From a virus, in the UHGV virus genome UHGV-1364479: a stretch of DNA of 47,010 nt. One strand, given 5' to 3'. A program made the position numbers and the translations under genes. Positions 246 to 44,324 of the stretch are shown piece by piece. Positions within the stretch are counted from its first letter, which is position 1; each line of letters opens with the position of its first letter. Below the pieces are notes generated by a model. It made no database searches. It worked only from the letters and a program-made list of their open reading frames with translations, and was not told the origin of the DNA.

Positions 246-1055
246 ATGACATCTCTCGGAAAAATTTACTCAGACAAAGAAACACGAAACGGCATCGCTG
301 TTAACAAAACCTATCTCGTGCCAGTGGAGCAAATCTATCTGGAGCCGGGATACAACATCCGTGAAGCAGATGAGCAGCATGTGGAGTATTTCGCGCAGTG
401 CTGGGAATCAGGCCAACCACTGCCAGCATTAACAGTTATTCCTGATGAAAAGGGAATCCGCATTCTTGATGGTCAGCATCGCTATCTCGGCGCATTGCGT
501 GCCATTGAGCGTGGTGCGCCAATCGTTCGAATTGAGTGCAAGGATTTCACTGGCGATGAGGCGGATAAAATCGCCTTCATGGTGTCATCCAGTCAGGGTA
601 AGCAGCTTGACCCGTTTGAGCGTGCGAAGGCTTACACGCGACTGAAAGGCTTTGGCTGGACGAATGAAGAAATCGCCAAAAAGGTAGGTCGTTCAGTATC
701 TGACGTGCAGATGCACCTGTCACTGGGTGATGTTCCAGCGGAAGTAAAAGCTCGAATCAGTGCCGGGCAAATCAGCTATGCAAATGCCGTAGCTGTAACG
801 CGCGAGCATGGCGATGATGCGGTAAAAGTTATCGACGAGGCAGTAGAAGAAGCCAAAGCACAAGGTAAGGACAAGGTCACAGCGAAGGTTCTGAAGTCGA
901 AAAAGATTAAGCCAGTAGACCGCCTGATTGAGTTATTAAAGCCAGCTGACCATGTGATTCTTCCTGCTGGTCATGTGGTGGCAGAGGATGAGGAATTTAT
1001 CCAGATTCCTGTCGCTGATATTCACGAGGTTATGGCAATTCTGGAGAAGATGTGA
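246..1055 (+). CDS. ParB/Srx-fold nuclease-domain protein carrying the DGQHR signature (DndB-like family)
   Basis: 269-aa ORF, RBS GAGGAAGAT before ATG; literal motif ILDGQHRYLGA matching the DGQHR/ParB N-terminal domain; C-terminal half helical, charged. Confidence 0.75.
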   Translation: MTSLGKIYSDKETRNGIAVNKTYLVPVEQIYLEPGYNIREADEQHVEYFAQCWESGQPLPALTVIPDEKGIRILDGQHRYLGALRAIERGAPIVRIECKDFTGDEADKIAFMVSSSQGKQLDPFERAKAYTRLKGFGWTNEEIAKKVGRSVSDVQMHLSLGDVPAEVKARISAGQISYANAVAVTREHGDDAVKVIDEAVEEAKAQGKDKVTAKVLKSKKIKPVDRLIELLKPADHVILPAGHVVAEDEEFIQIPVADIHEVMAILEKM

Positions 1056-3111: not shown

Positions 3112-4182
3112 TTACACCGGAGTTTGCGTGCCGTAGCCGTTGAATACTCTGGATTTGCCAGTGGCATCCTTGCGAATTTGCAGACCAAAAGCCGACCACA
3201 CGAGGAAGTTAAAGTTATCGTGCGGGTTAGCACGGGCTGCCGCATAGGTGGAAACAGGCTGAGCAACACGCGGACGGATGTACATGTCGTTGCGAACGTA
3301 GCCAACGAAATGGTTACCAGTCAGCAGGAAGTTGGTGCCAATCTTGCCGATACGACCATTGCCGAACTGAGTGATGTACTGCTCAACCGTGCCGCCTTTG
3401 AAGCCAGCCGCATTAGAATACGGACGCATGAAGCTACGGCGCACTGCCGGGGAAACCCACAGAGTCACCTGCTCAAATACGTTCTGCGCATCCAGAATAG
3501 CCTGGAAATCCTGATTGAAGAAGGTCACGATTTCGTCTGGCGTCGCGGTTTGCAGGTCGATATTCAGGCCGCCGGAAGCGTTCAGGTTAACCTGAACGGT
3601 GTTCGGGTGGTTGGTGATACCGTAACCAGTGTAAACGCCGTTCACATTCAGAGTCTGGTCGCCAGTCAGCAGGTACTGCGCCATATCGGAACGCAGGTTA
3701 AAGGTGACGTTAGCCTGATCGTCAAGCAGTGGGTCAAAACCTTCAGACTGCATACCCAGCAGTTCGCGCCATTCGCGGCTGTAGCCAGTTTTGAAGATTG
3801 GAATCACATCGCCAGTGTAATCGTAGCGAGTTTTATCCAAGTCTTCCGGCTCCTGACCAGACAGTGTGCGGACTACCTTACCAGCATCGGAAGCAATGCG
3901 GCTGATTGCCACAGTCTTACCTATGTTGATGTTTGCTGCGATACCCATCAGGTCAGCCATCATGTCCTGACCAGCTTCGTTACGGAAAACGCGGGTGGTG
4001 ACGCTATCCACGTCGCGCCAGTAGTCTTTCGTTACCAGCGCGGTGGCGTTCACACCGTAGGTTTTCGCCAGCTCAGCTTCTGCATTGCAGAACACCTTAC
4101 GGTCGATGGTCAGATGTTTCCACTGGTCAGCCACTACTGCGGAGTTGGCTACCAAGTCTTTGGTAAAAATAATCTTTTCCAT
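3112..4182 (-). CDS. major capsid protein (HK97-fold)
   Basis: 356-aa ORF directly downstream of protease/scaffold and decoration genes; Gly/Thr-rich composition typical of MCPs; flanked by terminators. Confidence 0.75.
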   Translation of the reverse strand: MEKIIFTKDLVANSAVVADQWKHLTIDRKVFCNAEAELAKTYGVNATALVTKDYWRDVDSVTTRVFRNEAGQDMMADLMGIAANINIGKTVAISRIASDAGKVVRTLSGQEPEDLDKTRYDYTGDVIPIFKTGYSREWRELLGMQSEGFDPLLDDQANVTFNLRSDMAQYLLTGDQTLNVNGVYTGYGITNHPNTVQVNLNASGGLNIDLQTATPDEIVTFFNQDFQAILDAQNVFEQVTLWVSPAVRRSFMRPYSNAAGFKGGTVEQYITQFGNGRIGKIGTNFLLTGNHFVGYVRNDMYIRPRVAQPVSTYAAARANPHDNFNFLVWSAFGLQIRKDATGKSRVFNGYGTQTPV

Positions 4183-4184
4183 TA

Positions 4185-5941
<1,757 letters not shown>

Positions 5942-7114: not shown

Positions 7115-7568
7115 GATAACCTCTTGCGCTGCGAAGAAGTGAATTAAACATATTGCTCACGTTTACTTCATGCTCCTGCCATGAGTAGCGCCATAGCTTC
7201 TTGTGGTGGTCATAACTTCTCGTCACATCACCGTTATGAAACATAATGCGGATGCGGCTTTTCACGATTCGGTAATCAATGCCAGTGACGGAGCTGATTT
7301 CTTTCACCTCAGCGCCAGCGTTATCAAGCAAATGGCACTTAATCGCATCATCAATACCATCCGCATCATCAGAGATGAAATATTTATACTGCCACTTGCC
7401 ACCACGAATAACTGACTTCTCGCGGCGAATTAATCCAAGAGCAAGCATCTCATGTAGACGATGCGTTGTGGTGCTTGAATGCTTACCGCCGCAATGCTTC
7501 TCAATATATGCACGCGTTGCGCCTGGATGATTAACAATCACGCGCATGATTTGTGATTTATAGTCCAT
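7095..7568 (-). CDS. putative winged-helix DNA-binding protein
   Basis: ORF 7095..7601; probable start M12 with RBS AGAGGAA; helix-turn-wing pattern HRLHEMLALGLIRREKSVIRGGKWQYKY. Confidence 0.4.
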   Translation of the reverse strand: MDYKSQIMRVIVNHPGATRAYIEKHCGGKHSSTTTHRLHEMLALGLIRREKSVIRGGKWQYKYFISDDADGIDDAIKCHLLDNAGAEVKEISSVTGIDYRIVKSRIRIMFHNGDVTRSYDHHKKLWRYSWQEHEVNVSNMFNSLLRSARGYHGESQA

Positions 7569-7809
7569 AATCGCGTTCCTCTGCTGCCTGATTGAAGTCA
7601 TCTGCGGTGTAGAGGTGCCCGTTGCGACGATTCCATGTCTTTATTGCCAATTCCGGTGACTTACCATGCTCTGTTTTTAGCAAACATGAGTCGCACTCAA
7701 CATAACTCCAGCCACCTACTGTTTTAACCAGATAAATTTCACTGGACGCGCAGCATGGGCACTCAAGCAATCCGTTCTCATTCATCATTGGCATGTGTGG
7801 TGCGCTCAT
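7558..7809 (-). CDS. Lar-family restriction alleviation protein
   Basis: 83 aa; paired Cys motifs CPCC...ECDSC and C-terminal AIKTWNRRNG matching the Lar signature (two CxxC pairs, ...WNRR). Confidence 0.55.
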   Translation of the reverse strand: MSAPHMPMMNENGLLECPCCASSEIYLVKTVGGWSYVECDSCLLKTEHGKSPELAIKTWNRRNGHLYTADDFNQAAEERDYGL

Positions 7810-16929: not shown

Positions 16930-17136
16930 TCACCCTCTCAAAAAATCATTCTTGCAGCAGATACCTTTGTACCCACGCTTCTCTTGCAGGTTAACGAAGA
17001 CATCATCCAGAACGCGCAGCAGAAAATCCTCGTCGATATCATATCGACGGCAAATCACATCATCAGGCACTCCAGCCCGCGCCAGTGAATAAACCTGCTC
17101 TTTTTCCTCCTGTGTGAATCCTGCATAGCTGCGCAT
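16930..17136 (-). CDS. hypothetical protein, 68 aa (MRSYAGFTQEEKEQ...)
   Basis: Track ORF 16930..17289 reads through the promoter region; internal M52 is the plausible start. Confidence 0.4.
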   Translation of the reverse strand: MRSYAGFTQEEKEQVYSLARAGVPDDVICRRYDIDEDFLLRVLDDVFVNLQEKRGYKGICCKNDFLRG

Positions 17137-17287
17137 AGTGATATCTCCGATAAACCTGATGTAGATTATACTATGCGCTCGGTGTAGATTAATCAAGTGT
17201 GGTGATGCAGATTTATCAACAATAACAAATGTTGACGTAGAAATGGTGGTGATGTAGATTGATGACAAACAACAAACAGGAGTTAAC
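17137..17287. promoter_or_regulatory. divergent promoter region with four GTAGATT/GCAGATT copies; rightward TTGACG-N17-TAGATT (17232-17260) and leftward TTGATT-N17-TAGTAT
   Basis: gatgtagattatac, gtgtagattaatc, gatgcagatttatc, ttgacgtagaaatggtggtgatgtagatt. Confidence 0.55.
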
Positions 17288-17752
17288 ATGCTTTCGGTAA
17301 TTTATATAGCAGCAATATGCGCAGCAAATTTCTCAGTGCATTTATTTGGACCAGCAATCACTCCAGTAAATGCGTTTCTGTTTATTGGCCTTGATTTTGT
17401 GGTCAGGGATAAGTTGCATGAGAGAGTCGGTGTCAGGAAAATAATAGTTCTTATATGTGTCGCTGGGGTGTTGAGTTATTTGATTAACCCAGCCACCGAT
17501 ATGATTGCCGTCGCAAGTGTTGCTTCGTTCGCCATCGCAACTCTGACAGACGCATCTGTATACCAGCTACTAATAAAAAAGCACTGGCTGATAAAGTCCA
17601 ACGCAAGCAATGTAGCGGCGTCAGCTGTTGATTCGGTCATTTTTCCGCTTATTGCCTTTGGTTACTTTATGCCGCTAGTTGTCGCTGGTCAATTTGTGGC
17701 TAAAGTTTGTGGGGGTGCTGCATGGTCATTAATCTTGAGGAAAATAAAATGA
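17288..17752 (+). CDS. YhhQ/DUF165-family membrane protein (queuosine-precursor transporter-like)
   Basis: 154 aa, 5-6 TM helices; RBS CAGGAG; segment FLFIGLDFVVRDK...RKIIVLICVAGVLSYLI and ...DASVYQLL...W...SNASNV...DSVIFPLIAF parallel my recollection of E. coli YhhQ. Confidence 0.5.
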   Translation: MLSVIYIAAICAANFSVHLFGPAITPVNAFLFIGLDFVVRDKLHERVGVRKIIVLICVAGVLSYLINPATDMIAVASVASFAIATLTDASVYQLLIKKHWLIKSNASNVAASAVDSVIFPLIAFGYFMPLVVAGQFVAKVCGGAAWSLILRKIK

Positions 17753-18534
17753 TACATCATTATCACGGTCTACCAATATGGGGTGATGGAGTAATGGAGA
17801 TCGCAACCAGAGGTAGCGGTGCATTTGTATCACACGCATGGCCTCAGCAAGCCCAAAAAGCACTTGATTCCGCTGGCAGCGTGGCATTTGATAATGGCGC
17901 ATTCAGTGCATGGAGAAGCGGGAGGCCAGTGAAGGACTGGACACCATTTTATCAGTGGCTTATGAGGCATTACCACAATGAGAAACTTGAATTTTTCATT
18001 ATTCCAGACGTAATTGATGGAAATGAGGAAGACAACGACAAGCTCATTGACAGTCTGCCATCAATGTTTAAAGAGAAAGCCGTTCCGACATGGCACTTGC
18101 ATGAATCAACAGACAGGCTTGTCAGGTTATGCGAAGAGTGGCCAAAGGTGTGCTTTGGATCATCCGGCGAGTATGCTGTGATAAGAACTAAGCGCTGGCA
18201 CGAAAGAATGACGGAAGCATTCACAGAGATTTACATCAAAAGAAACCTAAAAACAAAAATTCATGGCTTGCGAATGCTTGATGGAAGAGTTCTTGGTAAC
18301 TACCCACTCCACACGGCTGACAGCACAAATCTTGCGTGCAACGTGCCAAAATTTGATAAGAAGTATCCTGAATTAACGCGAGCAATAATTGAGGCGGAAT
18401 ACAGTAAGTCTCTTGATGCAAGGGAGTTGAAACAAACAATTCTAAGAGGTAGAGCAGCAGTATTGAAAGGAGCTGTGGAGAACGTTAAGCCACCATCAAT
18501 TGAAGAATGGATTCAAAAACAAGCCCTCAGATGA
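17749..18534 (+). CDS. DpdA-like tRNA-guanine-transglycosylase-family protein (candidate 7-deazaguanine DNA transglycosylase)
   Basis: 261 aa from ATG 17749 (ATGA-coupled to yhhQ-like stop, RBS GAGGAAAA); assignment rests on the YhhQ-like neighbour plus weak TGT-like motifs (GSSGEY, IHGLRML). Confidence 0.4.
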   Translation: MIHHYHGLPIWGDGVMEIATRGSGAFVSHAWPQQAQKALDSAGSVAFDNGAFSAWRSGRPVKDWTPFYQWLMRHYHNEKLEFFIIPDVIDGNEEDNDKLIDSLPSMFKEKAVPTWHLHESTDRLVRLCEEWPKVCFGSSGEYAVIRTKRWHERMTEAFTEIYIKRNLKTKIHGLRMLDGRVLGNYPLHTADSTNLACNVPKFDKKYPELTRAIIEAEYSKSLDARELKQTILRGRAAVLKGAVENVKPPSIEEWIQKQALR

Positions 18535-18548
18535 GGGCTTTATTTTTA
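18519..18548. terminator. bidirectional terminator (AAGCCCTCA-G-ATGAGGGCTT + T-run)
   Basis: Hairpin contains the DpdA-like stop; sits between convergent DpdA-like and terminase large subunit genes. Confidence 0.65.
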
Positions 18549-19853
18549 ACGCCTGCGCCGGATTAGCATTGCTGCCATTGGTCGTACGAGTGGGAACTTA
18601 TTATAAATGTAATAATCAGCCGCATCGTTCGGGTGGTCATTATCGTGAGTTTTGTCTGGCTCTCCCTGCTTGTTGTAAATCTGCTGCTCTCTCGCCTCAG
18701 TGTAGATTGGACACAGCTTTGTATTTACCTTGTATCTGCGCTCGCCTTCGGCGTTACAGAACATCGCGTTAACGGAGTTGATACGGTCTCGTACTGGTGG
18801 GTTCTTACTGTCAGCCATAACATGAAAGCCAGCATCTCTCAGTAGGGCTATATCAGACGTGCCAGCGTTCACGGTTTTGCGACTGCCGCCTGATGCATCG
18901 GGATAAACGTAAATTTCACACAGCTTCTCAAACTCACCATTTGATGTCTCCCTCCATAAACGCTGCTTGATTAACCGAATCATTTCTGGCGTATCGTAAG
19001 CACCAAGTATCTCGCCAACTGCGATCGGGTCGCCATCCCTTTCGACATGAATAATCGCAGACATCTTGCCCACGTTGAAGTCCATACCTACATGAGCTGG
19101 TTCACCAGCCTTGTATTCCTCATCGCTGTGATTAAGATTCCTGTCGAATTGAGGATAAACAGTGCCAGACGTAAGGTTTACAAACTCACCCTGCAAATAG
19201 GCTTCAATGAGTTGCGGCGGGTAGCTATCGCGCAGTGACTGAACGTAATCATCAGGCAGGAAAGGGTTACTCATAGTGCTTGCCTGCACCATTTCATACC
19301 CATCCTTTTTGTTCTTTACCCATCTGTCATAAACAAACCGGAACCCTTCAGGGGTGGAGAATATACCAACGGTATTCATCGGCTTACCTGACGTGTCAGT
19401 ATATGTTCTCGGTCGTTGGCGGTTACGGGCAATTATTTTTATCCACGCCTCAGATGCGTGTTCTTGCTTAAGCGTATCAATTTCGTCAATCTTTGCCCGG
19501 AACGACTCATAGCCGACTATTCGTGCTGGATTATCCAGAGTCCTGAGAACAAAATCACCCATCTGCCCTGATGACGTGTAGATTATGTTCTCTGCCTTGT
19601 TGTATTTGTATCGGACGCCCCAGTCGATTAATTTCTCCTCCATGCGGGGGGCAAGAATAAGACGCACCAGGTCATAAGTCGGCTGATACATGGCTATAAG
19701 TGAGTCAGAACCACCCTCGAGACTATCAAGCAATGCAGAGTTACACATAGTCTCTGACTTCCCAGTACCAAAGCCAGCGATAAAAGCCGGGAATTTACAA
19801 TTGAGGTTCATGAACCTTGCCTGAGGCTCGGTTAGTGTCATCTTAATTTCCAT
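18546..19853 (-). CDS. terminase large subunit
   Basis: 435 aa; N-terminal ATPase with Walker A FIAGFGTGKSE; C-terminal nuclease-type acidic motifs; downstream of terminase small subunit. Confidence 0.85.
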   Translation of the reverse strand: MEIKMTLTEPQARFMNLNCKFPAFIAGFGTGKSETMCNSALLDSLEGGSDSLIAMYQPTYDLVRLILAPRMEEKLIDWGVRYKYNKAENIIYTSSGQMGDFVLRTLDNPARIVGYESFRAKIDEIDTLKQEHASEAWIKIIARNRQRPRTYTDTSGKPMNTVGIFSTPEGFRFVYDRWVKNKKDGYEMVQASTMSNPFLPDDYVQSLRDSYPPQLIEAYLQGEFVNLTSGTVYPQFDRNLNHSDEEYKAGEPAHVGMDFNVGKMSAIIHVERDGDPIAVGEILGAYDTPEMIRLIKQRLWRETSNGEFEKLCEIYVYPDASGGSRKTVNAGTSDIALLRDAGFHVMADSKNPPVRDRINSVNAMFCNAEGERRYKVNTKLCPIYTEAREQQIYNKQGEPDKTHDNDHPNDAADYYIYNKFPLVRPMAAMLIRRRR

Positions 19854-20355
19854 GATTGCTAAACTCCATGAACATCTTATCAGCCGCTAACTTATACGCC
19901 TCATGTGCAAGTTCCGGCGTATCAAAAAAACCAAGGTGAATCTTCCTACCGTTAAATTTTATGTAAGCCTCGTACTTCCCGGTAGCCTTGAAAAGGCTCA
20001 CCCCCTTAAATCCGGAAGTATTATGTGATGGTCTATTCATGTTCCATTTATTGTTAGATGACGTTGCCAATCTCAGGTTTGATATGTCGTTATTTGATGG
20101 GTTTGTATCTATATGATCGACCTCCATACCTTCAGGGATTGGTCCGTTAAACATCTCCCATATAATACGGTGCGCAAGTAGCAGCTTCCCGTAAACGCGC
20201 ACATACCTGTAACCGTTCCTTCCAATGTTGCCAGCCTCCTTACCAGCATATTTATTTTTGTGTACTGAGTATCCTCTTTTGGTTTTGAATGATTCCTCAT
20301 TGCGTAAAACCCAATACAGCTTACCATTGGCGTAACGAAAATAATCTTCATGCAT
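19843..20355 (-). CDS. HNH endonuclease with AP2-type DNA-binding domain (homing-endonuclease-like)
   Basis: 170 aa; HNH motif EVDHIDTNPSNNDISNLRLATSSNN; C-terminal NTSGFKGVS...GKYEAYIKFNGRKIHLGFFDTPELAHEAYK is an AP2 domain. Confidence 0.75.
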   Translation of the reverse strand: MHEDYFRYANGKLYWVLRNEESFKTKRGYSVHKNKYAGKEAGNIGRNGYRYVRVYGKLLLAHRIIWEMFNGPIPEGMEVDHIDTNPSNNDISNLRLATSSNNKWNMNRPSHNTSGFKGVSLFKATGKYEAYIKFNGRKIHLGFFDTPELAHEAYKLAADKMFMEFSNHGN

Positions 20356-20400: not shown

Positions 20401-20856
20401 TTACTTACTCTTATCTGCACTAATCACCTCTATCTGCACCTTATGGATTGCACCATCACCATCTGCACCTTCCGATTCAGGCTTATCTCTCCATAGTTTT
20501 GGTTGTCTGTTTTTTAACCAAAAAATCATTGATGTAGGGTCTGGCGGGTATCTCTTTATTGTTGGTGTAATTACGATTTCACCATTGACGGCCTTAATGT
20601 CGTCTTCTGGGTGCTCATACCCAGTGGCTCTACTGAACAATGCTTGAGCAACTCGTGCATCAGCAATTTCCTTCCCTCGCCTTAAGGACTCAAGAAACGA
20701 CGGGTGTTTGTGCTTCCACGCGTTTATTGTTTGCTCGCTCACATCAAAGAAAGTGGCAAGCTGTTTATCAGTAGCGCCAAGCAGGCAATAGTTGTACGCC
20801 TGCTCGTCGTACTCAGGTTTGTATTCTGTCGGTCGCCCGATTGGTTTGTCTGACAT
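20401..20856 (-). CDS. terminase small subunit
   Basis: 151 aa with N-terminal HTH (ATDKQLATFFDVSEQTINAWK); first gene after terminator and TTGTGATAGAAT element. Confidence 0.6.
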   Translation of the reverse strand: MSDKPIGRPTEYKPEYDEQAYNYCLLGATDKQLATFFDVSEQTINAWKHKHPSFLESLRRGKEIADARVAQALFSRATGYEHPEDDIKAVNGEIVITPTIKRYPPDPTSMIFWLKNRQPKLWRDKPESEGADGDGAIHKVQIEVISADKSK

Positions 20857-34631: not shown

Positions 34632-38432
<3,801 letters not shown>

Positions 38433-38433
<1 letters not shown>

Positions 38434-41375
38434 TATTCGGTTGCCCTCCGGTTTGTTGAGTAATTTCTTGAAATAGCCTGCCCTATCGCGCCGTTGTTTT
38501 CTATGTCACTAACAATCGTCTCAATCGTCACGCTGCCGTCACCATTATCTCTGGCGCTGCTGCTGACCTGCGCTGAGCTGTTATTTATCACGTTATTATA
38601 AACCACAACGCCACTGCCACCGCCCGTTAGGTCTTTGTTGCTGATAACCGAGCCATCGTTCCCTGGAATCATGTACTGGCGACCGTTGGACGCCTGGAAT
38701 ATCTCAGGCAAGCCATTCTCGCCAACTTCGTACATGCTTCCTGCGCTAACAGGTCCGCCATTTTTGCGCTTGCCAGCAATTCCCATCGCCAGCGCCCCGA
38801 GAACGGCACCTACCCCAATTGCAGCCGCCCCGCCGAATGAGCCGATTGATGCTACGATTGCTGCTGGAGTCCATGCCGCCGTAGTGGTGGCTGCCGCCGC
38901 CGTCGATGCTGCTGTTGTGGTTGCCAGTCCTGCCGTTTGCGCCGCTGTGGTTGTCGCTGTTGCCGCAACCTGTGCAGTTTCACCCATCACGGCAGATTTA
39001 ACCCACTCAACACCCATTTCGACGAAACTATTTACCAGAGAGTTCAGCACCGTAGAGCCGAGGCTACGCATGGCATCCTGAACGCTCATTGTACCTGTCA
39101 GCAATCCGGTAATACTGTTTGAGGCTGTGCTCATCGCGGAATCCAGTGCGGTTCCGAACAGTTGCGCCCCAAGGCTTTGCTGCTGCCATTCAGCCCACAT
39201 GGCATCCATTCTCTGCTGGCGGTATTGTGCTTCAATTGCTGCGCGAGTCTGTTCAATCTCCGTGATTTTTTGCGGATATGCTGCGGCGTAGGCATCAAGG
39301 TCAGCCATGCGTTGCTGGTATTCACTGTCAATGCCAGTCGTTGGCGACGCAATGGCACGTAATCCCTGATATGATTTTTCTACGCGCTGCCTTTCTTTCT
39401 CCGCTTCTGCCTGCTCCTTCAGCGCATTCTTCTGGTCCCAAATCTTCGCAGCGTACTCGCCAGCCAGTTTTATTTGCTCCTGAGTGGCAGCCTTGCCAAG
39501 CGACTGTTGCGCGTTGAGAATTGCCTGTTCGCGGGAGAGTTCCTTTGTTGATTCTGCCTGACCAGCAAGCAATGCCTCGTCACGAAGTTTATTTAATTTC
39601 TGTTGGATTGTTTCCTGTTGCTTTAATTCCGTTTTTAGCTGGTTGTTTGCATTACGTTCATCTTTTGCCGCCTGAGCGTTTCTTTCCTGTTGGCGATACG
39701 TTTCAAGACGAACGTTGTAGTATTCGCGGAAAGCGGCGGTGTTTTGTTTTAACCCCTGCGCCTCAGCATCACGCCAAGCCTGAGCTTTTAGTTTTTCATC
39801 GCCAGTTTGCTTCTCAATAAACAGCGTCTGGCGAGCGGTTTGCAACGCTCTGTCCTGACTTGATGTCAGGCTATCCGTCATTTCCTTAAGAGCTTTCAGG
39901 CGCATTGTTGCGTCAGTTGTTGTGGTGGCAATTTCCAGCAGGCGAGCAGCATACTCTCTGGCTTTTTGAGCGCCAGATGACTGGCCTTCACCTACCTTTT
40001 GCAGAGTAACAATTAAAGCATTAAGTTTTTCATTGCTTGGGTTTTTAGCAATTTCAGAGAGCTGTTTAGCAAATTCAAAAGCCTGTTGGTCGGTCAGATC
40101 AAAGCGACTTGCCAGAGCGCCAACGGTAGCAATCATGTTATTCATCGTAGATTGCCCGGCAAGTCCGGCAGATGCAGCCTGCTTCATTGCCTCGCTGAAA
40201 TCATTGGTGGTGATATTCAGCATTGATAGGTAATCGTTGAAAGATTTAACGCTGACGTTTGCACCAGCAAAAGATGCGAAAAGTCTGTCGCCAAAGGTGA
40301 CGAACTCACCGGATGCTTTTGATACTTCCTTTGATACTTTGGATAGTGCAGCGGACAGTTCAAGTTGAGCCTGCTGGCGCATCAGTGTTGCAACAGTTGT
40401 GTTGGCTTTTGCTAGAGCTGCAAACTTATCTGAGTATGCTGCCACGCCATTACTTGAAACGCTGATAACCTGATCCATTGCAGAAATGGCATCCTTCATG
40501 GCGTCAATGGCATTCTTACCATTGCTTAGCGAGGCCATCAGTGAGCCAGCGATAACTGTCGCTATTGTTAACACTGCGCCAGCAACAGGGCTGAATATAG
40601 ATGCAAGTTGCGAACCCTGCTGACTGAATGCAACAAGCGCAGACTGACCACCCTGAACCTGAACAATAAAGTCCTGAACCTGATAGCCACCCTGCTGTAG
40701 TGCGTTCCTGAAACCGTTTGTGGATTTGCCAGCCGACTCTGTACCGTTTTTCATGTCGTACAGTCTACCAGTCAGCTCAGCAATCTTGGCCTTTTGCGCA
40801 TCAGTTGCGCCATCTCCAGCTCTGAGTTGCGCCGCAAGAATTGCCGCACTTCTCGCGCCGTTTTCCATTTGCTCTTCAAGAATTGCAACCTGATTACCGA
40901 GGCTTTCAATTAATCTTTCTGTGCCAGATATGCTTGCGCCAGCGCCGCCAGTAGATGTACCAAGCTCACGAATAGCAGTCGTAACAGCATTAATTGAGGT
41001 TTCCAGTCTGCCAGTAGAAACAGCGGCTTGTTGCTGTTGCTGCTGCATCATGGCGAGTTGTTGATTTAGAGCGTCGATAACCTGATTGGCTGACTCGGCA
41101 GATTGCGATGTTGATTTGACAGCGCTTGCCGCACCATCACTGGATGCCGCCATCTTGCTTAGCGTGGCATCAATGCTTTTAACCACGGAAACAAGGGAAG
41201 AGAATGCCTTTCCGGCTGAGTCAGCCTGACCATCAAGTTTATTTAAATTCTTCGTGGAGCCACTTACAGCGGAGTCAAATTTTGATAACTCTGATTCCGC
41301 TGAGCTTGCTCCTGCTTTAAGCCCGGATACATCCATCCCGACTTCGTAGACAATCCCACCGACTTCTTCAGCCAT
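38433..41375 (-). CDS. tail tape measure protein
   Basis: 980 aa, highly helical Ala/Gln/Ser-rich, poly-Q run, C-terminal Ala/Thr repeats (ATATTTAAQTAGLATTTAASTAAAATTTAAW) and Gly-rich end. Confidence 0.85.
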
Positions 41376-44168: not shown

Positions 44169-44245
44169 GGACGCGTAGCTTAATTGGTTAAAGCAACCGA
44201 CTCATAATCGGCTGATTGAAGGTTCAAATCCGTCCGTGTCCACCA
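44169..44245 (+). tRNA. tRNA-Met (anticodon CAU), CCA encoded
   Basis: Cloverleaf: acceptor GGACGCG/CGTGTCC, D-stem GCTT/AAGC, anticodon loop CTCATAA, T-loop TTCAAAT; one mismatch each in anticodon and T stems. Confidence 0.6.
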
Positions 44246-44251
44246 AATTAA

Positions 44252-44324
44252 ACACCATTAGCTCAACGGATAGAGCAGTAGCCTTCTAAGCTATTGGTTG
44301 CAGGTTCGAGTCCTGCATGGTGTG
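44252..44324 (+). tRNA. tRNA-Arg (anticodon UCU)
   Basis: Acceptor ACACCAT/ATGGTGT perfect, D-stem GCTC/GAGC, anticodon loop CTTCTAA, T-stem GCAGG/CCTGC, T-loop TTCGAGT. Confidence 0.7.

Follow-up and report, generated by a model that had tools for sequence, protein, structure and literature searches.

A miniature VUT-family gene coupled to a DpdA-like gene in an Akiravirus-like siphophage: a candidate carrier and transglycosylase pair for sparse 7-deazaguanine marking of DNA

The virus genome UHGV-1364479, a stretch of 47,010 nucleotides referred to here as the window, harbors at positions 17137–18548 a plus-strand cassette of two genes beside the large terminase gene. Gene 1 encodes a miniature membrane protein of the VUT family, to which the transporter YhhQ also belongs, and gene 2 a stand-alone DpdA-like member of the tRNA-guanine transglycosylase (TGT) superfamily (Table 1). 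We regard it as moderately probable that the pair is a moron occupying a variable slot in an Akiravirus-like siphophage, and that a carrier and a DNA transglycosylase encoded by it would together mark DNA sparsely with 7-deazaguanines. A first-pass annotation had already proposed 7-deazaguanine DNA modification, and this is still the best reading. That interpretation is partly supported: the cassette, its ATGA coupling and a 261-residue gene 2 were found as described, while what is known of the closest relatives supports neither a need for import nor a strong layered role against restriction. The category of phage—DpdA-only, here with a YhhQ-family partner—is already in the literature and does not represent a new system.

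Both are real genes: database homologues at E ≤ 1e-3 number 439 for gene 1 and 3139 for gene 2, and each family contains about 60 invariant columns. The earlier assignment of gene 1 to the YhhQ/DUF165 family holds, given its match to the Pfam model Vut_1 (PF02592; 39.1 bits against a gathering cutoff of 27.2), which covers residues 71–141 only, in the C-terminal half, and recurs in all 120 of the homologues listed. Nearly all gene 1 homologues are 154–157 residues long, and many lie on phage-sized contigs. An AlphaFold2 model (predicted local distance difference test score, pLDDT, 81) has six helices, and its fold resembles the S-components of energy-coupling factor transporters in its six-transmembrane-helix architecture. 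Escherichia coli YhhQ (COG1738), which is needed for salvage of 7-cyano-7-deazaguanine (preQ0; PMC5372724), is likewise a six-helix member of this Pfam family associated with 7-deazaguanine genes, but it has 221 residues against 154. Gene 1 scores far under the NCBIfam equivalog cutoffs for YhhQ (23.6 against 50.95 for TIGR00697 and 21.5 against 252 for NF008406) and is therefore, by these scores, not a YhhQ ortholog; it represents a distinct short, phage-specific VUT subfamily. Profile alignment of its family by hhalign is weak with E. coli YhhQ (E 5e-4, probability 31%) and reaches a probability of 95.7% with gp41 of phage CAjan, a 159-residue "putative preQ0 transporter". Gene 1 is presumed to act as the importer of a 7-deazapurine base used by gene 2, a substrate and a direction of transport that we infer. 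Some miniature VUT homologues bear the database label 'VUT family protein [Salmonella enterica serovar Montevideo]' and lie on contigs of ~44 kb; this serovar serves as the model for the bacterial Dpd system.

The TGT-family character of gene 2, which the earlier annotation had read from weak motifs, is borne out by fold and by profile comparison. Its AlphaFold2 model is a confident (βα)8 TIM barrel (pLDDT 91.9) with Cap10 (PDB 9ntn_B), bacterial DpdA (bDpdA) and TGTs as best structural matches. More specific is a Foldseek search of predicted viral structures, which gave 31 matches at E ≤ 1e-3, a protein of Vibrio phage nt-1 among them; almost all of those with a name are "queuine tRNA-ribosyltransferases" of phages, and PHROG 887, "queuine tRNA-ribosyltransferase", is matched at 8.5e-76. 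The reference point among phages is DpdA of CAjan, which is genetically proven in that its deletion abolishes the deoxynucleoside of preQ0, dPreQ0 (PMC7544227). CAjan DpdA finds gene 2 by phmmer at 7.6e-5, and hhalign joins the two families with a probability of 89.7% (E 1.8e-6, 165 columns), a moderate rather than overwhelming score. Sequence searches of solved structures, whether with gene 2, a 39-sequence gene 2 profile or CAjan DpdA, yielded no meaningful match, and a lookup of the exact gene 2 sequence found no record.

The catalytic Asp pair expected of a guanine transglycosylase is conserved. Invariant in both families, and aligned with each other, are D48-x-G-A-F52-S-A with CAjan D62...F66, H116 and E119 with CAjan H131 and E134, and Y185-P...D191-S with CAjan Y199-P...D205-S; D48 (with F52) and D191 are invariant across 39 gene 2 homologues. 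In the model, D48xxxF52 sits at the C-terminal end of β3, H116 at that of β5 and D191 at that of β8, and the invariant P86-D87, G137-S-S-G140 and H172-G-L follow β4, β6 and β7, respectively. This order is that of D95/F99, D130, H181, G206/G207, L236 and D256 in bDpdA, which uses D95 as general acid/base and D256 as nucleophile and loses guanine exchange when either is mutated (PMC10164549). As none of the sequence tools connected gene 2 with bDpdA, this mapping relies on co-linearity and the CAjan profile alignment only. Taken together, sequence and model place gene 2 in the TGT superfamily as a DpdA-like member, a minimal TGT-fold barrel that lacks the zinc subdomain.

That the gene 2 fold is common to tRNA TGTs, and that databases label its family 'queuine tRNA-ribosyltransferase', would also suit a tRNA-directed queuosine-salvage module, in which the VUT protein imports 7-aminomethyl-7-deazaguanine (preQ1), preQ0 or queuine and the TGT-like enzyme modifies position 34 of host tRNA, tuning phage translation. 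A VUT gene beside a TGT-like gene indeed mirrors the queuosine-salvage clustering of bacteria (PMC5372724), as in queuine salvage by YhhQ plus Tgt. We nonetheless consider such a module quite unlikely. The gene 2 profile shows no detectable relationship to E. coli Tgt (hhalign probability 0.2%), whereas the DNA enzyme of CAjan aligns; unlike tRNA TGTs (PF01702), gene 2 neither matches that Pfam model nor has the zinc motif, and the zinc subdomain it lacks stabilizes tRNA binding. The host already has Tgt. The only two tRNA genes of the phage, Met(CAT) and Arg(TCT), at 44169–44245 and 44252–44324 (+), are not queuosine substrates, neither having a GUN anticodon. Finally, phages bearing homologues of gene 2 have deazaguanine in their DNA (PMC8306585, PMC6884629).

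A different alternative is prompted by Cap10, the TGT-like partner in type IV CBASS (cyclic-oligonucleotide-based antiphage signaling system) that binds a deazaguanylated protein, since the match to it shows that a minimal TGT fold may have targets other than nucleic acids. Gene 2 might accordingly bind or transfer 7-deazaguanine on a protein or small molecule, or drain the host deazapurine pool, for instance against deazaguanine-dependent defenses such as type IV CBASS (Cap9/Cap10) or QatABCD. This strikes us as very improbable. The Cap10 match has only 10% identity and is marginally better than that to bDpdA; the Asp pair for glycosyl transfer is invariant; and DNA is modified in homologue-bearing phages. 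Cap10 is encoded in an operon with Cap9 (QueC-like) and a CD-NTase (cGAS/DncV-like nucleotidyltransferase), unlike gene 2, and Pfam scans of the window open reading frames (ORFs) found no Cap9, QueC-like or CD-NTase gene nearby. The shared lack of a zinc subdomain in gene 2 and Cap10 probably reflects convergence on a minimal TGT core.

The strongest argument that gene 1 supplies the substrate of gene 2 is that a miniature VUT gene stands next to a DpdA-like gene wherever the contig leaves room for one. Among the 80 best viral-contig loci with a relative of gene 1 (48–95% identity, 26 clusters at 90%), 77 have a DpdA-like gene immediately adjacent on the same strand, in the order VUT then DpdA in 25 and the reverse in 52, and the linkage is seen in 25 of the 26 clusters. 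The three exceptions stop at a contig edge on the relevant side, leaving 77/77 evaluable loci linked. The reverse dependence is not seen: of the 80 viral loci nearest to gene 2, a VUT gene occurs at just one, the window's own relative, and GenBank phages give 105 records with a match to gene 2 against 14 for gene 1. A functional link between the two genes is thus supported by their association, in which the miniature VUT protein seems to be an obligatory accessory to DpdA, which itself often acts unaccompanied. This near-absolute linkage, the one modestly new point here, sharpens a remark made in 2019, according to which YhhQ is encoded by some DpdA phages "with no correlation" (PMC6884629).

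The pair recurs across unrelated phages. A VUT gene with a DpdA-like gene is annotated in PEAT2 (Pectobacterium), Opt-719 (Rogunavirinae) and AB3P2 (Acinetobacter), and both proteins are matched in Flyfo siphovirus Tbat1_6, Lg3, LHE71, RCIP0319, Phc, Sadiya and Opt-79; Phleasolo gave a gene 1 match. The module is the same, adjacent and co-oriented, in PEAT2, Tbat1_6, Opt-719, the Escherichia phages Lg3, LHE71 and RCIP0319, and AB3P2, with VUT proteins 37–72% and DpdA-like proteins 40–82% identical to those of the window, and at the three loci inspected (PEAT2, Opt-719 and AB3P2) the annotation shows no preQ0 gene less than ~4 kb from the pair. These other pairs differ in backbone, genomic position and sometimes gene order (DpdA then VUT in AB3P2). 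The unequal identities in PEAT2 (VUT 72%, DpdA 40%) raised the idea of a recent chimera, which was rejected as the pair diverges together in other contigs; partner exchange between DpdA subclades does occur and leaves the conclusion unaffected.

What the enzyme might do to DNA is best gauged from characterized relatives. The gene 2 protein shares 63.6% identity with gp39 of SW9, a P2-like phage of Salmonella, and, over its full length, 52.7% with gp38 of Pantoea phage vB_PagS_MED16 and 39.3% with DpdA of Salmonella phage 7-11. In MED16 and 7-11 the homologue is the sole deazaguanine gene, and liquid chromatography–tandem mass spectrometry detected dADG, the 2'-deoxynucleoside of 7-amido-7-deazaguanine, in the DNA of both, at 354 per 1e6 nucleotides (~0.13% of G) with traces of dPreQ0 in MED16 and at 50 per 1e6 nucleotides (~0.02% of G) in 7-11 (PMC8306585, PMC6884629). 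Such phages form the third, 'DpdA-only' group of Hutinet et al. (2019), which with 76 members was the largest group of DpdA-encoding phages in that survey and the least understood with respect to the inserted base, its source and the purpose of sparse marks. Like the window, MED16, SW9/SEN1 and 7-11 have a stand-alone DpdA of ~260 residues from the same sequence family in a genome without FolE, QueD, QueE or QueC; their hosts are enterobacterial and queuosine-proficient, and the expected product is low-level dADG/dPreQ0. Unlike in the window, no VUT partner accompanies the gene at its locus in MED16 and SW9, and MED16, SW9 and 7-11 gave no tblastn match to gene 1. Position differs as well: the window gene is coupled to a miniature VUT gene in a late-region slot by the terminase, and those of the DpdA-only phages lie in early or replication regions. 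For example, the solo DpdA-like gene of SW9 (3980–4810 of the SW9 stretch) is in an early operon directly upstream of the replication initiator ('nicking at origin'), which fits a role on replicating DNA.

Levels this low bear on what the marks could achieve. The first-pass annotation envisaged a layered anti-restriction strategy in concert with a Lar-like gene, an idea at odds with the 0.02–0.13% of G found in solo-DpdA relatives and with the finding that most G-containing restriction enzymes tested still cut MED16 DNA (PMC6884629, PMC8306585). Sparse marking implies instead that protection, if any, would be directed against particular sequence- or mark-reading defenses rather than restriction enzymes generally. 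One version of this, using the same chemistry, is that sparse dPreQ0/dADG at motifs imitates the marks of the bacterial Dpd system and so evades Dpd-type restriction. The levels in solo-DpdA phages do resemble the insertion rate of bDpdA, which is low (<0.1% of G; PMC10516641), dADG is the mark of the bacterial system (PMC10164549), and the failure of MED16 DNA to resist ordinary restriction enzymes is as this idea would predict (PMC8306585). We view such mimicry as unlikely: the cassette was not found to contain a DpdC-like gene for the conversion of dPreQ0 into dADG, and nothing ties the hosts to dpd islands.

The source of the base is the second question on which earlier claims can be revisited. 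That no folE, queD, queE or queC gene is present in the 47 kb held up. A Pfam scan of concatenated window ORFs, covering all but two large tail ORFs (34632–37118 and 38433–41375), found no GTP_cyclohydroI, PTPS, QueC or radical-SAM match. Against stop-to-stop frames of at least 40 codons in all six frames of the window, phmmer with CAjan FolE, QueD, QueE and QueC returned nothing (E ≤ 10), as did E. coli FolE, QueD, QueE, QueC, QueF, Tgt and QueA (E ≤ 1); the four CAjan genes, taken as positive control, were all retrieved by the E. coli queries. Nor were preQ0 synthesis genes found within ±10 kb in 160 related loci. The further claim, that the precursor must be imported, does not follow. E. 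coli and Salmonella synthesize preQ0 de novo through FolE, QueD, QueE and QueC. Import is therefore not obligatory in enterobacterial hosts, and host-derived preQ0 suffices for low-level insertion: dpdA of phage 9g expressed alone in E. coli places dPreQ0 in plasmid DNA at ~0.3% of G (PMC6884629), and CAjan ΔfolE and ΔqueC retain a ~12-fold lower modification from host metabolism (PMC7544227). It is plausible that import supplements host preQ0 and is not a necessity.

A stronger dependence on import is kept open because VUT and DpdA are linked in 77/77 evaluable loci without biosynthetic genes. The miniature VUT protein and solo DpdA would then form a self-contained salvage-type hypermodification module whose marking depends on imported environmental 7-deazapurine, an idea we hold as tentative and rather doubtful. 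The imported base would possibly not be preQ0, but for example preQ1, 7-amido- or 7-carboxy-7-deazaguanine (ADG/CDG), or queuine from neighboring microbes. Were this so, the epigenetic state of virions, and hence their host range versus mark-reading defenses, would vary with the chemical surroundings.

In the mechanism that we favor, the DNA target (rather than RNA or protein), the identity of the base and the biological benefit are what we infer. The slot promoter would drive early or constitutive transcription, yielding the carrier and then, via translational coupling, the transglycosylase. As an inner-membrane carrier, gene 1 would scavenge a base from the medium and raise the cytoplasmic 7-deazaguanine pool, adding to the preQ0 made by host FolE, QueD, QueE and QueC. 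After replication, gene 2 would flip out guanines at preferred motifs of phage DNA and displace them via a covalent Asp191–deoxyribose intermediate, with Asp48 as general acid/base; the intermediate would be resolved with the deazapurine, leaving a 7-deazaguanine in the DNA. The inserted base would most likely be preQ0, ending mainly as dADG as in MED16 and 7-11. The expected outcome is a sparse, probably motif-specific marking on the order of 0.01–0.1% of G, with no bulk replacement.

Several observations weigh against this picture. The proposed hidden Markov model check came out positive for gene 1 (PF02592) but negative for gene 2, which has no Pfam hit, TGT PF01702 included, and no NCBIfam or PADLOC DpdA hit; PADLOC matched neither cassette protein. 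The missing Pfam TGT hit says little, because the proven CAjan DpdA family likewise has no precomputed Pfam domain, and CAjan DpdA itself reaches the PADLOC DpdA model only at E 1.3e-3. The lack of any detected relationship to E. coli Tgt counts here too, as does the absence from gene 2 of a CxCxxC...H motif, that is, of the structural zinc site of bDpdA and TGTs. For the base-recognition Asp, D130 in bDpdA, the alignment offers two candidates: invariant D87, which pairs with CAjan Ser101, and a variable D/E90, which pairs with CAjan D104. The dADG of MED16 and 7-11 ties the clade of gene 2 to DNA modification by correlation. The carrier raises doubts of its own. The pairing of DpdA with YhhQ, previously called established, had been documented, the 2019 remark aside, only inside the large CAjan cluster, where ΔyhhQ has no phenotype (PMC7544227). 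As 79 of the 80 loci closest to gene 2 lack a VUT gene, import is not generally needed. The host, moreover, has a YhhQ of its own.

A final difficulty concerns the partner protein DpdB, an ATPase of the ParB fold that bacterial DpdA needs; the cassette contains no partner of this type. A ParB-like HTH protein of the window (246–1055, +) was considered as a DpdB analogue and rejected, being a backbone gene in cassette-less Akira (gp76) and 16 kb away. The bacterial enzyme of the S. Montevideo Dpd system (PDB 7UI4) differs in other ways: it has 413 residues, DNA-binding insertions and a structural zinc site, all unlike gene 2; besides requiring DpdB it works with DpdC and a restriction module, and neither dpdB nor dpdC is in the window cassette. 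Its NCBIfam and PADLOC models are those that gene 2 fails to match. CAjan, a Seuratvirus, shares with the window a short VUT protein (gp41, 159 residues) and a DpdA (gp35) that carries the same catalytic motifs. Unlike the window, it also encodes FolE, QueD, QueE and QueC, modifies ~25–30% of its G and can dispense with its VUT protein; gp35 and gp41 are not adjacent, and their identity to the window proteins is only ~20–30%.

Measured against these systems, the cassette is small, with just two genes, one of them for a dedicated carrier, and its phage has a genetically tractable host; it offers a test case for imported precursors feeding DNA modification. It also allows one to ask what low-density dADG/dPreQ0 protects against, be it Dpd-type restriction or the newly described deazaguanine-specific glycosylases.

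The genomic setting is that of a siphophage genome of ~47 kb and 46% G+C. Its closest annotated relative is the Salmonella phage Akira (Akiravirus; ~89% identity over 59% of the first 25 kb), and the unannotated Escherichia phage ECO111 5-P is slightly closer to it than Akira. The two genes are flanked by minus-strand genes (Table 1), and the ATG of gene 2 overlaps the TGA of gene 1 as ATGA. Position 17137 is the first intergenic base after the left flank gene, which is also called at the equivalent position in cassette-bearing relatives. The terminator hairpin has a G+C-rich stem of 8 bp at 18521–18540 and overlaps the gene 2 stop codon. The σ70-like promoter is a match at consensus level only (9/12 positions), and such promoters are no more numerous than expected from shuffled sequence.

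Table 1. Features of the cassette and its flanks, in window coordinates
Feature	Position	Strand	Details
Left flank gene, no assigned function	16930-17136	−	68 aa; divergent from cassette
Control region of slot	17137-17287	+	Intergenic; σ70-like promoter, repeats, gene 1 ribosome-binding site
σ70-like promoter	17232-17260	+	−35 TTGACG 17232-17237, 17-nt spacer, −10 TAGATT 17255-17260
Gene 1 ribosome-binding site AGGAG	17279-17283	+	5 nt upstream of gene 1
Gene 1, putative mini VUT/COG1738 (YhhQ-family) carrier	17288-17752	+	154 aa, six-helix membrane protein
Gene 2, putative stand-alone DpdA-like guanine transglycosylase	17749-18534	+	261 aa; GAGGA 7 nt upstream
Bidirectional terminator-like hairpin AAGCCCTC-AGAT-GAGGGCTT	18521-18548	.	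T-runs, both strands
Right flank, large terminase	18546-19853	−	435 aa; Terminase_6N 9e-16, Terminase_6C 5.5e-10; convergent with cassette

Comparison with Akira corrects one more detail of the first-pass annotation, which had given the cassette its own promoter and terminator. Both are ~90% identical in Akira, where the cassette is absent; they are therefore backbone features of the slot, and the VUT–DpdA pair is one of several alternative, swappable cargoes. Aligned Akira homology breaks just after the −10-like hexamer (~17262) and resumes at the terminator stem (18521), and the intervening stretch of Akira holds two small ORFs, gp38 and gp37, that are unrelated to the cassette. The cassette DNA is present in a single GenBank phage, ECO111 5-P (94.1% DNA identity), and ~100 related Salmonella, Escherichia and Shigella phages match the flanks only. 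It is also absent from 5,426 complete E. coli genomes, which means that prophages of E. coli do not commonly carry this version. The same pair, of 154 and 261 residues, fills this slot in at least 13 further contigs that come from several sequencing runs.

A slot of this kind could hold a neutral passenger, a recently acquired moron that is silent or confers no benefit; unrelated small ORFs fill it in Akira and ~100 related phages, and the promoter match is not above chance. This is nevertheless improbable, as both ORFs are intact, coupled and equipped with good ribosome-binding sites, their families contain the many invariant columns noted above, and the cassette persists in the slot across those contigs, even beside a replaced terminase gene. 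Moreover, the gene 2 protein is more similar to its ECO111 5-P counterpart (96.2% identity) than is the cassette DNA; for the gene 1 protein the value (94.2%) is about equal to that of the DNA.

In 5/5 of the relative contigs inspected the terminase beside the cassette is a 474-residue protein of Terminase_3 type; that the terminase was exchanged while the cassette beside it stayed as it was suggests that the surroundings of the slot are a recombination hot spot. Past the large terminase of the window, a minus-strand gene at 19843–20355 encodes a homing-type endonuclease with HNH_3 and AP2 domains, ahead of a gene at 20401–20856 that occupies the position of the small terminase subunit in Akira. 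The 151-bp divergent intergenic region contains three direct copies of (G/A)TGTAGATT, at 17159–17167, 17182–17190 and 17252–17260, the last overlapping the −10-like hexamer. Akira matches the first (17159) and third (17252) copies exactly and the middle one (17182) in its first seven bases, after which the alignment diverges; the repeats, which are not enriched across the genome, could serve the slot as operators or as −10 elements in tandem. The GTGTAGATT repeat was considered as a regulon motif and rejected, since its 12 copies in the window are no enrichment over the 9.9 expected. The Lar-like gene of the first-pass annotation does exist, at 7558–7809 (−), where Lar_restr_allev scores 30.0 bits against a gathering cutoff of 28.6; it is annotated in Akira too (gp62) and thus belongs to the backbone rather than the cassette.

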